From the NCBI RefSeq assembly GCF_003334305.1, contig NZ_QOWS01000026.1: a DNA stretch of 64,000 nucleotides; one strand, given 5' to 3'. A model generated the notes under the pieces. That model ran no database searches. It saw only the letters and a program-made list of their open reading frames with translations, and was not told the origin of the DNA. Positions within the stretch are counted from its first letter, which is position 1. Each line of letters opens with the position of its first letter. Shown here piece by piece: positions 2,936-34,336 of the stretch. A program made the position numbers and the translations under genes. This DNA is from Escherichia coli. GTDB lineage: Bacteria > Pseudomonadota > Gammaproteobacteria > Enterobacterales > Enterobacteriaceae.

Positions 2936-3970
2936 ATGAGTAACGCGATTACGATGGGGATATTTTGGCATTTGATCGGCGCGGCCAGTGCAGCCTGTTT
3001 TTACGCTCCGTTCAAAAAAGTAAAAAAATGGTCATGGGAAACCATGTGGTCAGTCGGTGGGATTGTTTCGTGGATTATTCTGCCGTGGGCCATCAGCGCC
3101 CTGTTACTACCGAATTTCTGGGCGTATTACAGCTCGTTTAGTCTCTCTACGCTGCTGCCTGTTTTTCTGTTCGGCGCTATGTGGGGGATCGGTAATATCA
3201 ACTATGGCCTGACCATGCGTTATCTCGGCATGTCGATGGGAATTGGCATCGCCATTGGCATTACGTTGATTGTCGGTACGCTGATGACGCCAATTATCAA
3301 CGGCAATTTCGATGTGCTGATTAACACCGAAGGCGGACGCATGACGTTGCTCGGCGTTCTGGTGGCGCTGATTGGCGTAGGGATTGTAACTCGAGCCGGG
3401 CAGTTGAAAGAGCGCAAGATGGGCATTAAAGCCGAAGAGTTCAATCTGAAAAAAGGGCTGGTGCTGGCGGTGATGTGCGGCATTTTCTCTGCCGGGATGT
3501 CCTTTGCGATGAACGCCGCAAAACCGATGCATGAAGCCGCTGCCGCACTAGGCGTCGATCCACTGTATGTCGCTCTGCCAAGCTATGTCATCATCATGGG
3601 CGGCGGCGCGATCATCAACCTCGGTTTCTGTTTTATTCGTCTGGCAAAAGTGAAGGATTTGTCGCTAAAAGCCGACTTCTCGCTGGCAAAACCGCTGATC
3701 ACTCACAATGTGTTACTCTCAGCACTGGGCGGGTTGATGTGGTATCTGCAATTCTTTTTCTATGCCTGGGGCCACGCCCGCATTCCGGCGCAATATGACT
3801 ACATCAGTTGGATGCTGCATATGAGCTTCTATGTATTGTGCGGCGGTATCGTCGGGCTGGTGCTGAAAGAGTGGAACAATGCAGGACGCCGTCCGGTAAC
3901 GGTGTTGAGCCTCGGTTGTGTGGTGATTATTGTCGCCGCTAACATCGTCGGCATCGGCATGGCGAATTAA
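2936..3970 (+). CDS. rhaT: L-rhamnose:proton symporter
   Basis: 344 aa [29 protein letters not shown]..., recognised as RhaT; GAGG Shine-Dalgarno 8 nt upstream. Confidence 0.96.
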
Positions 3971-4815
3971 TCTTTCTGCGAATTGAGATGACGCCACTGG
4001 CTGGGCGTCATCCCGGTTTCCCGGGTAAACACCACCGAAAAATAGTTACTATCTTCAAAGCCACATTCGGTAGAAATATCACTGATTAACAGGCGGCTAT
4101 GCTGGAGAAGATATTGCGCATGACACACTCTGACCTGTCGCAGATATTGATTGATGGTCATTCCAGTCTGCTGGCGAAATTGCTGACGCAAAACGCGCTC
4201 ACTGCACGATGCCTCATCACAAAATTTATCCAGCGCAAAGGGACTTTTCAGGCTAGCCGCCAGCCGGGTAATCAGCTTATCCAGCAACGTTTCGCTGGAT
4301 GTTGGCGGCAACGAATCACTGGTGTAACGATGGCGATTCAGCAACATCACCAACTGCCCGAACAGCAACTCAGCCATTTCGTTAGCAAACGGCACATGCT
4401 GACTACTTTCATGCTCAAGCTGACCGATAACCTGCCGCGCCTGCGCCATCCCCACGCTACCTAAGCGCCAGTGTGGTTGCCCTGCGCTGGCGCTAAATCC
4501 CGGAATCGCCCCCTGCCAGTCAAGATTCAGCTTCAGACGCTCCGGGCAATAAATAATATTCTGCAAAACCAGATCGTTAACGGAAGCGTAGGAGTGTTTA
4601 TCGTCAGCATGAATGTAAAAGAGATCGCCACGGGTAATGCGATAAGGGCGATCGTTGAGTACATGCAGGCCATTACCGCGCCAGACAATCACCAGCTCAC
4701 AAAAATCATGTGTATGTTCAGCAAAGACATCTTGCGGATAACGGTCAGCCACAGCGACTGCCTGCTGGTCGCTGGCAAAAAAATCATCTTTGAGAAGTTT
4801 TAACTGATGCGCCAC
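3967..4815 (-). CDS. rhaR: AraC-family rhamnose regulator RhaR
   Basis: ORF track gives 3967..4989; the 282-aa form starts at GTG 4815 (..[12 protein letters not shown]..) with GAGG SD; AraC-type HTH at C-terminus. Confidence 0.9.
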
Positions 4816-16332: not shown

Positions 16333-17166
16333 TTAATTGCTCAAACGCTGCGGATGGGTATAAACCGTTGCCCGACCCGGTTTACAAAAACCTACCAGTG
16401 TCAGATTACAGCGCTCAGCCACTTCTACAGCAAGCGTGGTCGCGGCAGACACCGCAAACAAAATCTCTACGCCGCACATCGCCGACTTTTGCACCATTTC
16501 ATAACTGGCACGACTGGAAACCAGTACCGCACCTTGCTGCCAGCTTTCCCCTTCTTGTGACCGGCGGCCTAACAGTTTGTCCAGCGCCACATGGCGACCC
16601 ACATCTTCATGCCCGCCGACCAGTTCGCCAGATGGCAACATCCAGGCAGCGGCGTGAGTACAACCAGTCAGTTGCCCCACTGGCTGAAAATCGTTGAGAT
16701 GACGTAATGCATCATCCAGTTTGTTGAGATCAAACGTCTGGGTGAACGGTAGCGGCTGCACCGGTTTTCCGATGTCATTAAGTTGCTCCACGCCGCATAC
16801 GCCACAGCCCGTACGTCCCGCCAGCGCCCGGCGGCGCTCCTTCAACCCCATAAAGCGGCGGCTGGAAAGCTCAATTTGTACTTCAAGACCATTACAGGAA
16901 GGAACGACATCCATGCCGAAGATATCGCGCGGACTTTCTATTATCCCCTCGGAAAGCGAAAAACCGAGCGCAAAGTACTCAAGGTCTTTGGGCGACGCCA
17001 TCATCACCACATGCGAAATGCCGTTGTAGACCAGCGCAACGGGAACTTCTTCCGCGACCTCATCTAACCGTGGGTGTTGTAAATCATCACGCCGCCATAA
17101 CTCAATTTGACGAACACCTGTGATATTTGTCACATTTTCGATTTCTTTTCGCTGTGTTTTTTTCAC
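16333..17166 (-). CDS. fdhD: Formate dehydrogenase accessory sulfurtransferase
   Basis: 277 aa [31 protein letters not shown]..., recognised as FdhD. Confidence 0.95.
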
Positions 17167-29283: not shown

Positions 29284-30069
29284 CTACGCGTCTTCCTGGG
29301 GAAGAATGATTTCAATTTGGCTGTCTTGTAAGCGTGATTTTAGCGCAGCGGGCGGCAGCTCGTCGGTAAAGAGCGCAGTGACCTGTGCCACGTTACCAAT
29401 TTCAACCGCCGCCGAAGCATGATACTTAGTGTGATCGGCGACCAGCAGAATATTTCTCGCGTGCGCCATCATCGTTTTCACCACGTTAGCTTCGTTTACA
29501 TCAAACTCCATCAACGCGCCATCGCTCTCAATCGCCCCAACGCTTGTTACCAGATAATCAGCACGAAAATCAGCCACAAAGGACGCCGCTGAAGGGCCAA
29601 TGATCCCGCTATTATGAGAGCGCAACGTACCGCCGGGCACCATCACTTCAAAGCGCGGGTTGTGGTAAAGAATATGCGCCACACGCAGGCTGTTGGTGAT
29701 TATCCGCAAATGATTATGGTTAAGTAACGCCCGGGCAACATGCTCAACAGTCGTACCAATGGTGATAAATATTGTTGAACCATCAGGAATATAGTCTGCC
29801 ACCGCTTCGGCAATCGCTTTTTTTTCCTCGGTTTGCGAAACCTCACGCTGCTCGAACGCCGTATTAACGACGCTGGAAGCCCGACCCGCGCCACCGTGAT
29901 GGCGCGTAATCAGGCCTTGCTCGCTTAATTTACGAATATCCCGGCGGACCGTCTGCGTGGAGACATCCAGCAGATTTGCCAGCTCATCAATATTCATATA
30001 CCCACGCTCGGCGATCAGCATGAGGAGTTGGTCGTGCCGCGGGTTACCGGTTAGTTCGGTAAGGCTCAT
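29284..30069 (-). CDS. csqR: DeoR-family repressor of sulfoquinovose catabolism
   Basis: 261 aa from ATG 30069 (MSLTELTGNPRHDQLLMLIAERGYMNIDELA...); DeoR HTH plus sugar-binding domain; K-12 yihW. Confidence 0.92.
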   Translation of the reverse strand: MSLTELTGNPRHDQLLMLIAERGYMNIDELANLLDVSTQTVRRDIRKLSEQGLITRHHGGAGRASSVVNTAFEQREVSQTEEKKAIAEAVADYIPDGSTIFITIGTTVEHVARALLNHNHLRIITNSLRVAHILYHNPRFEVMVPGGTLRSHNSGIIGPSAASFVADFRADYLVTSVGAIESDGALMEFDVNEANVVKTMMAHARNILLVADHTKYHASAAVEIGNVAQVTALFTDELPPAALKSRLQDSQIEIILPQEDA

Positions 30070-30102
30070 GAAAATTCCTCGAAAAACCATCACCCTGGCA
30101 TT

Positions 30103-30999
30103 TTATACAAAAAGTGACAAAAAAGATCGGGTTTGATCACAGTCAGGGATCCCGGCTCGTCCACCGGGACGTGTGCATTTTAACGCCGCTACACCGCTGG
30201 CGAAGCGGACTGACTCCGCTAAATCCCCACTTGTTGCCAGCGCCACCGCCAAAGCGCCGTGAAAAACATCACCCGCACCTGTGGTATCTACCACATCAAC
30301 TTTGAAGGCCGGTTGATGCTGACGCCCACCATTTTCCAGCCAGTCGCAGCCTGCGCTACCCTGGGTCACATAGACATGACCATTTGTGAGCGTTTGTGCC
30401 TGTTTTAGCGCACTGGCCATCTCTTTCACGCCCGTTAAGCGCGCCAGACCCGGTTCTGAAAAGGCCGCGTGATCGCTTAATGCCACCAGCTCACTGATAT
30501 CCTGCGGCGTAATGTCCCCGTCCAGAACGGTCATCACACCCGCCTGACGGGCCAGGGTGAAGGCTTTTTTAGCGCCGTCGTGCCAGCGTACATCTGCCAG
30601 CACAACATCCCACTGAGAGAAATCAATTTCCTCCAACCACTCTGCGTCAGGCAGCAGATCCGGGCTGGGGTAGTTAATGATTATCCGCTCGCCTTTGGTA
30701 TCCACCATGATGGCGGATTGCGAAGATTTCGCCTGGTTATACCGTTTGGTGTAACGGGTGTTAACGCCCCAGGATTCCAGCTCTGCCAGCAGGCTGTTGC
30801 CCGTGTCGTCATCACCTACGCGACCAATAAAATCGACCTGCGCCCCCAGCCTTGCCGCCGCAACCGCTGCCGTCGCCGCTGGCCCGCCACCAACTTCCGT
30901 ATAATTTCTCGCCACGTATTTACCGCTCTCCGTCGGTAACCCTTCCACGTAATAGATGCGATCCATCACGGTTATACCTACACAAGCAACACGAATCAT
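30103..30999 (-). CDS. yihV: 6-deoxy-6-sulfofructose kinase
   Basis: 298 aa from ATG 30999 (MIRVACVGITVMDRIYYVEG...), PfkB-family kinase. Confidence 0.93.
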   Translation of the reverse strand: MIRVACVGITVMDRIYYVEGLPTESGKYVARNYTEVGGGPAATAAVAAARLGAQVDFIGRVGDDDTGNSLLAELESWGVNTRYTKRYNQAKSSQSAIMVDTKGERIIINYPSPDLLPDAEWLEEIDFSQWDVVLADVRWHDGAKKAFTLARQAGVMTVLDGDITPQDISELVALSDHAAFSEPGLARLTGVKEMASALKQAQTLTNGHVYVTQGSAGCDWLENGGRQHQPAFKVDVVDTTGAGDVFHGALAVALATSGDLAESVRFASGVAALKCTRPGGRAGIPDCDQTRSFLSLFV

Positions 31000-31052
31000 G
31001 GTCATTCCTTAAACATTTTGGGATGCGTTCATTTTAATTTCACCAATTGTTT

Positions 31053-31147
31053 AAAAAGTGACGGCTGTCAATTTTTTGACGATAAATTACAAATACGATC
31101 AAAAACAGACAAGCAAAGCATGTCATAAATGACAAAAAGTGACATCA
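31053..31147. promoter_or_regulatory. Repeated AAAAAGTGAC-type palindromic motifs in yihV/yihU divergent region
   Basis: aaaaagtgacggctgtcaatttttt at 31053..31077 and tgtcataaatgacaaaaagtgacatca at 31121..31147; a third copy at about 30108..30125 upstream of csqR. Confidence 0.5.
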
Positions 31148-31166
31148 CTGTATTCAGGAGAGGGTT

Positions 31167-32063
31167 ATGGCAGCAATCGCGTTTATCGGTTTAGGACAAA
31201 TGGGTTCGCCAATGGCGAGCAATTTATTGCAGCAAGGGCATCAACTTCGCGTCTTTGATGTGAACGCCGAAGCTGTGCGGCATCTGGTAGACAAAGGTGC
31301 GACTCCCGCCGCCAACCCAGCGCAGGCCGCTAAAGATGCCGAATTTATCATTACCATGTTGCCGAATGGCGATCTGGTGCGCAACGTGTTGTTCGGTGAA
31401 AACGGCGTTTGCGAAGGCTTATCTACCGATGCGCTGGTCATTGATATGTCCACCATCCATCCGCTGCAAACCGATAAATTGATTGCCGATATGCAAGCCA
31501 AAGGCTTCAGCATGATGGATGTTCCGGTAGGCCGTACTTCTGCAAATGCCATTACCGGTACTCTGTTACTGCTGGCTGGCGGCACCGCTGAACAAGTTGA
31601 ACGTGCCACACCGATCCTGATGGCGATGGGCAGTGAGTTGATCAACTCTGGCGGTCCGGGCATGGGGATCCGCGTTAAGCTCATCAACAACTACATGAGC
31701 ATCGCGCTCAATGCGCTTTCGGCAGAAGCCGCCGTTTTGTGCGAAGCCCTGAATCTTCCCTTCGATGTTGCCGTCAAAGTGATGAGCGGTACCGCCGCCG
31801 GTAAAGGTCACTTCACCACTTCCTGGCCAAACAAAGTCCTCAGCGGAGATCTTTCTCCCGCCTTCATGATCGATCTTGCCCATAAGGATCTTGGCATCGC
31901 CCTTGATGTCGCCAACCAGCTGCATGTGCCAATGCCGCTGGGGGCCGCCTCACGGGAGGTTTATAGCCAGGCGCGCGCAGCGGGTCGCGGTCGCCAGGAC
32001 TGGTCCGCCATTCTGGAACAGGTCCGTGTCAGTGCCGGGATGACTGCCAAAGTAAAAATGTAA
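31167..32063 (+). CDS. yihU: 3-sulfolactaldehyde reductase
   Basis: 298 aa [36 protein letters not shown]..., NAD-binding Rossmann motif GLGQMG. Confidence 0.95.
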
Positions 32064-34223: not shown

Positions 34224-34261
34224 CTGATCTGAAAATAGGGTGCGGGTTTTCCCCTCACCCT

Positions 34262-34310
34262 AACCCTCTCCCCAAAGGGGCGAGGGGACCGTCCGGTGCA
34301 GTTTTTGGGT
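34262..34310 (+). terminator. GC-rich inverted repeat after yihS
   Basis: ccctctcccc-aaa-ggggcgagggg at 34265..34288, then a T-run at about 34303..34307. Confidence 0.4.
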
Positions 34311-34336
34311 TTGACATCAGCCTCACGGGAGGCTGT

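Follow-up and report, generated by a model that had tools for sequence, protein, structure and literature searches.

Which bases does CsqR (YihW) read at the promoters of the Escherichia coli sulfoquinovose (yih) cluster? In published work, which cites Shimada 2019, CsqR is described as a DeoR-family repressor that binds both the spacer between yihU and yihV and its own upstream region, and that is released by sulfoquinovose, sulfoquinovosyl glycerol and sulforhamnose (PMC8006165, PMC8249747, PMC10991401, PMC12608037); large cooperative complexes on DNA and oligomerisation are described in PMC8006165 and PMC10991401. The regulator, its targets, namely yihUTS, yihV and csqR, its effectors and the mode of repression are already published, and only a model of the operator at the level of single bases is possibly new. 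No nucleotide-level CsqR operator or footprint was found in the literature that was read, the primary paper, Shimada 2019, lying outside that reading, and no full text was found that mentions both the motif string and sulfoquinovose.

We analysed a 64-kb stretch of E. coli DNA (hereafter the window), which carries the cluster in an orientation reversed with respect to MG1655. The csqR/yihW gene (29284-30069, minus strand, RefSeq annotation) encodes the DeoR/GlpR-family repressor that is the presumed reader of the motif described here, and the Pfam domains HTH_DeoR and DeoRC are recorded for CsqR homologues. It is followed by yihV (30103-30999, minus strand, stop codon 30103-30105) and yihU (31167-32063, plus strand), then by yihT, yihS, yihR and yihQ. 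Complete E. coli genomes in which csqR, yihV and yihU are annotated match the stretch that carries them at 100% identity. A window position w corresponds to position 4104738 - w of NC_000913.3 and to 4102761 - w of U00096.2, and the latter mapping was checked against the NC_000913.3 annotation and the quoted yihV start, 4071737.

The initial annotation of this DNA had pointed to repeated palindromic motifs in the yihU/yihV spacer (31053-31077 and 31121-31147) and upstream of csqR, where they overlapped the 3' end of yihV, as candidate operators for the DeoR-family repressor. A window-wide count bore out the three exact copies and their coordinates: the 10-mer AAAAAGTGAC occurs exactly three times in the 64 kb (30109-30118, 31053-31062 and 31134-31143), always on the plus strand, against 0.10 copies expected, and none of 100 shuffles of the window gave three. 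When the 167-bp yihU/yihV spacer was shuffled with its own composition, two copies were obtained in 0/20,000 shuffles. The same spacer holds seven TGAC/GTCA words against 1.0 expected (0/20,000 spacer shuffles) and four TGACA/TGTCA words against 0.33 expected (11/20,000 shuffles). Specificity is limited to the exact or extended form of the motif: with one mismatch allowed, neither TGACA-N5-TGACA (6 found, 4 expected) nor AAAGTGACA (16 found, 13.4 expected) is enriched window-wide. Copies of the motif are absent from the yihR/yihQ and yihS/yihR spacers of the window, as well as from the regulator-transporter spacers of loci L071 and L072. The yihS-yihR spacer (34224-34336) carries a G+C-rich palindromic element of its own, cccctcaccctaaccctctccccaaaggggcgagggg, which looks like a dispersed intergenic repeat.

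The motif family is larger than the initial annotation had seen, and its consensus is close to CAAAAAnTGACA. A repeat search independently recovered it as families D2 and D4, with the members CAAAAAGTGACAA (30108), CAAAAACAGACAA (31100, 85% identical) and CAAAAAGTGACAT (31133). A position weight matrix (PWM) built from five conserved site classes, with the consensus gt.cAaaAA.TGACA, gave five matches scoring at least 14 in the 64 kb, four of them inside the two regulatory regions; GATCAAAAACAGACAA, which lies inside the ChIP-exo peak discussed below, scored 10.0, which places it 14th in the window and fifth among the hits of the two regulatory regions.

Upstream of csqR lies the copy V1, CAAAAAGTGACA (30108-30119, plus strand, recovered in both D2 and D4), whose exact 10-mer starting at 30109 overlaps the last five codons of yihV, so the overlap with the 3' end of that gene stands. 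In the spacer, the copy U1, AAAAAGTGAC (31053-31062, plus strand, about -28 to -37 from the yihV start), forms the left arm of a palindrome, and the inverted arm, AAAAATTGAC (31067-31076, minus strand), carries one mismatch; the full element (31053-31076) reads AAAAAGTGAC-GGCT-GTCAATTTTT, is centred at 31064.5 and matches at nine of the ten arm positions. The palindromic form proposed for all the motifs holds only here: the 31121-31147 region instead consists of TGTCA-TAAA-TGACA and then TGACA-N5-TGACA as a direct repeat, and next to csqR the copy stands without an inverted arm. A degenerate direct copy, U5, CAAAAACAGACA (31100-31111, plus strand), was recovered by repeat family D2 and by the PWM; it sits immediately 3' of a GATC, is 85% identical to 30108-30120 and has the conserved consensus GATCAAAAACAGACA. 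In the yihU leader, U6 and U7 form a direct pair, CATAAATGAC followed by AAAAAGTGAC (31124-31143, plus strand). The half-sites are thus arranged as one inverted pair with a 4-bp spacer and one direct pair at 10 bp, with irregular spacing overall and a csqR copy without a clear partner; the same-strand copies lie 48, 23 and 10 bp apart, which does not amount to one simple phased array. A resemblance to a PhoB box at 31121-31129 (TGTCATAAA) was rejected because its columns are not conserved. An RNA element is not indicated either, since no Rfam family matches 29800-31500.

Transcription starts have been mapped by Kaznadzey et al. (PMC5816610) at -25/-27 for yihV (31024-26), at -27/-28 for yihW (30096/7) and at -62/-63 for yihU (31104/5), the last gene having additional starts at -15, -25, -35 and -82/-92. 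The yihV start is fitted by a putative -10 hexamer TAAAAT (31031-31036, minus strand), whose columns are invariant, and the start at 30096/7 by a putative csqR -10 element, TATAAAAT (30100-30107, minus strand), which includes the yihV stop codon and is conserved as CATTTTATA; for yihU we place the -10 element at TACGAT (31094-31099). These assignments rest on the published starts, because a sigma-70 consensus scan of the spacer returned neither a promoter nor a -35 consensus. On this map, the palindrome occupies positions -28 to -52 whether counted from the yihV start or from the yihU start at -62/-63. The degenerate copy at 31100-31111 sits on the latter start, and the direct pair follows at +26 to +40 of it or, if the proximal starts are used, on top of these. 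At the csqR promoter, V1 takes up about -12 to -22, with the -10 element on one side and the reported CRP site on the other. The copies overlap core promoter elements (-35 or -10-proximal), an arrangement in keeping with a repressor that blocks RNA polymerase. An 18-nt direct similarity, GGGAyGyGTnCATTTTAA (83%), is also present between the yihV coding interior (30166-30183) and the yihV promoter/leader (31020-31037), and it may be due to chance.

Conservation of these elements was examined in 67 loci fetched via CsqR, one genome per species, from which 57 distinct yihU/yihV spacers and 63 csqR-upstream regions of Enterobacterales were aligned, with 277 fourfold-degenerate sites of yihU and yihV as the neutral baseline. 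In these counts, which are not independent because orthologous loci share descent and to which promoters add a constraint of their own, the baseline has a mean majority fraction of 0.58 and reaches at least 0.9 at 5% of the fourfold-degenerate sites, the left arm of the palindrome (31053-62) averages 0.97 with each column at or above 0.9, and the right arm (31067-76) averages 0.98. The 4-bp spacer of the palindrome (31063-66) stands at 0.69, and the central block that follows it (31077-31112) at 0.93. For U6/U7 the conserved core is TGACA-N5-TGACA, with the two TGACA words (31130-34 and 31140-44) at 0.95-0.97 and the bases between them at 0.68; the exact 10-mer at 31134 is found in few genera only, the site being otherwise conserved in this shorter form. 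In the yihV tail upstream of csqR, first, second and third codon positions are all conserved across the block gCATTTTATACAaAAAGTGACA.aAAAGA.CggGTTTGATCACAgTCaGG, and deeper into yihV the usual third-position variation is back. V1 itself is kept as ACAaAAAGTGACA in the 63 loci, third codon positions included, and its conservation falls in the promoter spacer, a part of a promoter that usually tolerates change.

The spacer and the csqR promoter are two non-homologous targets, and for each of 61 genomes we determined the k-mers common to both. The top k-mer, AAAGTGA(C), is common to both targets in 45-48 of the 61 genomes; GATCAAA/TTTGATC comes second (40/61), followed by CATTTTA, which is the -10 element of the two leftward promoters. 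One of the loci collected (L055, NZ_ABFU01000106.1, 885 bp, from the 'Bacillus coahuilensis m4-4' assembly) encodes a fragment 100% identical to E. coli CsqR, and probably represents E. coli contamination of that assembly.

Five divergent cassettes, from E. coli 536, Dongshaea marina, Limnobaculum, an Edaphovirga-like source and a degenerate locus (L073), encode CsqR proteins that are 68-74% identical. The CsqR recognition helix, VSTQTVRRDIRKLS, is invariant across them, so that one specificity is expected throughout. All of them retain cAnAAAGTGACAAAAAnG upstream of csqR, where V1 is thus kept as well, and all retain in the spacer the palindrome AGTGAy-N4-GTCAy together with a ATTACAAATAnnATCAAA core. 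Limnobaculum, Edaphovirga and Leminorella have AAAGTGACA as the right arm, which indicates that both arms converge on the same half-site, and in two 8.8-kb loci the exact 8-mer AAAGTGAC is confined to the two regulatory positions. The short cassette of E. coli 536 (L069, NZ_CP158445.1 4734529-4742260), which is carried by 1,327 of 5,426 complete E. coli genomes and contains a kinase, a reductase, an aldolase, a zinc-binding dehydrogenase and an MFS transporter, has a yihU/yihV region of about 65% nucleotide identity; its spacer retains the central block, as its most conserved part, and its TGTCA repeats are inverted in orientation. Two of these cassettes show irregularities. In Dongshaea marina (L070, CP028897.1, 3068-3963) gene calling splits the yihV orthologue into ORFs of 173 and 99 aa, which suggests a frameshift or a pseudogene. 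L073 (ERZ28665571 scaffold_9, 3295-4000) has a csqR homologue 70% identical, without yihV, and a 706-bp upstream region with two csqR-promoter-type motifs, ACAACGTGACAAACATGA and GGAAAGTGACAAAAATG, adjoined by a second DeoR-family gene; it looks like a rearranged or decaying cassette.

The published binding data can be laid over this map. The EMSA probes of Kaznadzey et al. 2018 (PMC5816610) correspond to 30932-31266 and 30011-30316 of the window, and a 2025 YihW EMSA study apparently used the same F and R primer pairs (PMC12608037); every motif copy falls within these two CsqR-bound probes. At higher resolution, Gao et al. 2021 reported a single dominant YihW ChIP-exo site whose nearest gene is yihV (PMC8464067). 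The peak, given in supplementary file 5 of that paper as U00096.2 4071641-4071681 with a signal/noise of 168, maps to 31080-31120, that is, at about 40-bp resolution, between the two spacer motifs of the initial annotation, and holds only the degenerate copy at 31100-31111. Of the minor YihW ChIP-exo peaks, those at ssuE, glpA and yafO were examined and have no motif copy beneath them; they are therefore probably non-specific.

The methylation data concern the same part of the spacer. Its only GATC (31097-31100) overlaps the putative yihU -10 element TACGAT. In Salmonella, both strands of the orthologous GATC lack methylation under conditions in which yihU is silent (PMC7708049, where Table 1 lists yihU position -66 as 'N'); counted from the yihU ATG of two S. 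enterica subspecies, we place this GATC at -67/-68. The E. coli yihU/yihV non-coding GATC is among the sites with time-varying methylation (PMC5155068, supplementary file 3). As the ChIP-exo peak and the GATC non-methylation both point there, they argue for tight protein occupancy of the central block. Given this overlap with the putative -10 element, and given that methylation is stably absent from the Salmonella orthologue of the GATC, the Dam methylation state could be coupled to promoter/repressor activity at this position.

Because the ChIP-exo and Dam data fall on it, the central block, which the initial annotation had not flagged, is at least as important as the exact copies. The idea that the motifs are operators of the DeoR-family repressor is therefore borne out in part: the copies lie within CsqR-bound fragments, on promoters, and are conserved, but the best in vivo peak is located between the exact copies. 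The published ChIP-exo occupancy by CsqR and the Dam-protected GATC at 31097 to this extent map elsewhere than the motifs first proposed, and yet the occupied block holds the degenerate copy CAAAAACAGACA.

Because the repeated words are real, strongly conserved and located on three CsqR-controlled promoters, they are most likely part of the CsqR operator. We consider it probable, with some reserve, that the exact 10-mers represent the most intact copies of a family of CsqR half-sites, each composed of an A-tract and then TGAC(A) and approximating CAAAAAnTGACA, and that these half-sites make up a composite operator which is covered cooperatively; the TGACA-type words would then be the bases contacted by CsqR.

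The alternative that survives best concerns CRP. Kaznadzey et al. assigned a CRP site to the yihW promoter, at -41.5, observed an EMSA shift of the yihU/V fragment with CRP, reported CRP sites in the spacer from phylogenetic footprinting and described CRP as a repressor of yihV (PMC5816610). The best fit to the -41.5 site is a candidate at 30132-30147, TTTGA-tcacag-TCAGG (no strand assigned), whose placement is inferred; it matches 7/10 CRP core positions and is conserved as GTTTGATCACAgTCaGG. Resemblance to CRP sites was scored here by consensus matching (TGTGA-N6-TCACA). By this measure the sole zero-mismatch match of the window is a perfect CRP core palindrome located at 17119-17134, TGTGATATTTGTCACA.

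It is possible, though doubtful, that the main role of the palindrome at 31053-31076 is that of a class II CRP site serving the divergent yihV and yihU promoters alike. CsqR would then either compete with CRP or act elsewhere, namely at the central block, at the copy by the csqR promoter and at the TGACA pair. The GTGA-N6-TCA core of the palindrome has CRP spacing and A/T-rich flanks, and its centre, 31064.5, lies at -41.5/-40.5 from the starts that TACGAT (31094-99) and TAAAAT (31036-31) would imply, and about 40 bp from the mapped starts (31104/5 and 31024-26); neither the yihV nor the yihU promoter has a recognisable -35 element. It is this class II geometry, together with the CRP shift of the fragment and the footprinting sites in the spacer, that keeps CRP binding at the palindrome alive as a non-exclusive rival. 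Against a role for CRP only, the match of the palindrome to the consensus is no better than 7/10 core positions; the window holds 186 matches of this quality, and 219 would be expected by chance. Moreover, the departures from the CRP consensus (A at 4, A at 18 and T at 19) are invariant in 56-57 of the 57 orthologues, which argues for a constraint other than CRP. The identical 10-mer at the csqR promoter has no CRP-type partner arm, and a separate CRP site is assigned there; for yihV, Kaznadzey et al. found CRP to repress and not to activate (PMC5816610).

A second alternative takes the in vivo data at face value. Here the true high-affinity CsqR operator would be the central block itself (about 31076-31112, TTGACnATAAATTACAAATAcGATCAAAAACAGACA), with a different recognition sequence, and the AAAAAGTGAC words would be kept for promoter architecture, for A-tract curvature or for another factor. 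The ChIP-exo peak at 31080-31120, with its signal/noise of 168, speaks for such an operator, as do the GATC at 31097, non-methylated in Salmonella and variably methylated in E. coli, the fact that no other part of the spacer is as well conserved, even when the 65%-identical E. coli 536 cassette is considered, and the rank of GATCAAA/TTTGATC as the second most shared k-mer of the two regions. However, the conservation is partly explained by the yihU -10 element and start, which lie within the block. A single border pair over a region covered by an oligomer need not mark the sole contact, and a distinct central recognition sequence says nothing of the conserved copy at the csqR promoter, although CsqR binds that fragment. 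We regard a separate central operator as unlikely, and in any case it hardly competes with the half-site model, because the block itself holds the family copy CAAAAACAGACA.

In a further reading, CsqR and CRP might share the palindrome at about -41 of the divergent promoters, CsqR acting partly as an anti-activator, and persistent CsqR occupancy might keep the GATC of the yihU -10 element unmethylated, giving sulfoquinovose catabolism a Dam-dependent, heritable ON/OFF component. We regard this extended scheme as quite improbable; if true, the ON/OFF component would resemble that of other loci with undermethylated GATC sites. Finally, that the copies are chance repeats in A/T-rich promoter DNA is effectively refuted and may be considered extremely improbable: the spacer is 66% A+T, which makes A-rich words commoner there than the whole-window shuffles suggest, but shuffles of the spacer itself never produced two copies, conservation is far above the neutral baseline, and the words recur in the divergent cassettes.

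Returning to the composite operator that we favour, the spacer would contain at least six half-site copies and the csqR promoter one strong copy (30108-30119). The centre of the inverted pair at 31053-31076 would fall on the -35 regions of both divergent promoters, those of yihV and yihU, the degenerate direct copy at 31100-31111 would lie at the yihU -10 element and start, and the direct pair at 31124-31143 would occupy the yihU leader. CsqR, a winged-helix protein, would bind these copies cooperatively, covering about 95 bp of the spacer as well as the csqR core promoter, and the bound protein would shut RNA polymerase out of all three promoters. Binding of sulfoquinovose, sulfoquinovosyl glycerol or sulforhamnose to the C-terminal domain of CsqR would then lead to its release.

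This result refines a known E. coli regulatory system and adds no new one. What it adds is a testable nucleotide-level operator model, namely a family of A-tract plus TGACA half-sites with six copies in the spacer and one at csqR. The model offers a way to reconcile the motif with the ChIP-exo peak and the Dam protection, and a possible overlap with CRP is flagged; it would aid the annotation of sulfoquinovose regulons in Enterobacterales and the design of inducible promoters.

The picture is one of ordinary DeoR/GlpR-type regulation, and the understanding of that class of regulation is unchanged by it. In the E. coli glp regulon, GlpR operators are made up of multiple half-sites, each about 10 bp long and some of them in tandem, that extend across promoter elements over tens of bp; GlpR binds them as a cooperative oligomer, is released by a pathway metabolite and has a CRP site nearby. 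CsqR shares with GlpR the protein family, the cooperative binding as an oligomer, the release by a metabolite, the neighbouring CRP site and, on the proposed model, the multiple half-sites. The GlpR half-site is roughly WATGTTCGWT, and the CsqR motif is unlike it, being an A-tract followed by TGACA, with one inverted pair mixed with direct copies at irregular spacing.

If the palindrome is set beside class II CRP sites of divergent promoters, the TGA-N6-TCA spacing, the A/T-rich flanks, a centre at about -41 from two -10 elements and weak -35 elements are common to both, but the palindrome differs in three invariant non-consensus positions and in that its word recurs without a partner at the csqR promoter. 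DeoR, AgaR and UlaR are described in PMC10991401 as winged-helix repressors of the DeoR type, which autoregulate and occupy multiple sites in the form of tetramers or octamers. Multi-site binding in a divergent or compound promoter region and autoregulation are features that they have in common with CsqR. DeoR itself uses 16-bp perfect palindromes hundreds of bp apart and DNA looping; unlike these, the candidate CsqR sites are packed into about 95 bp, with the csqR promoter site lying about 0.95 kb away.
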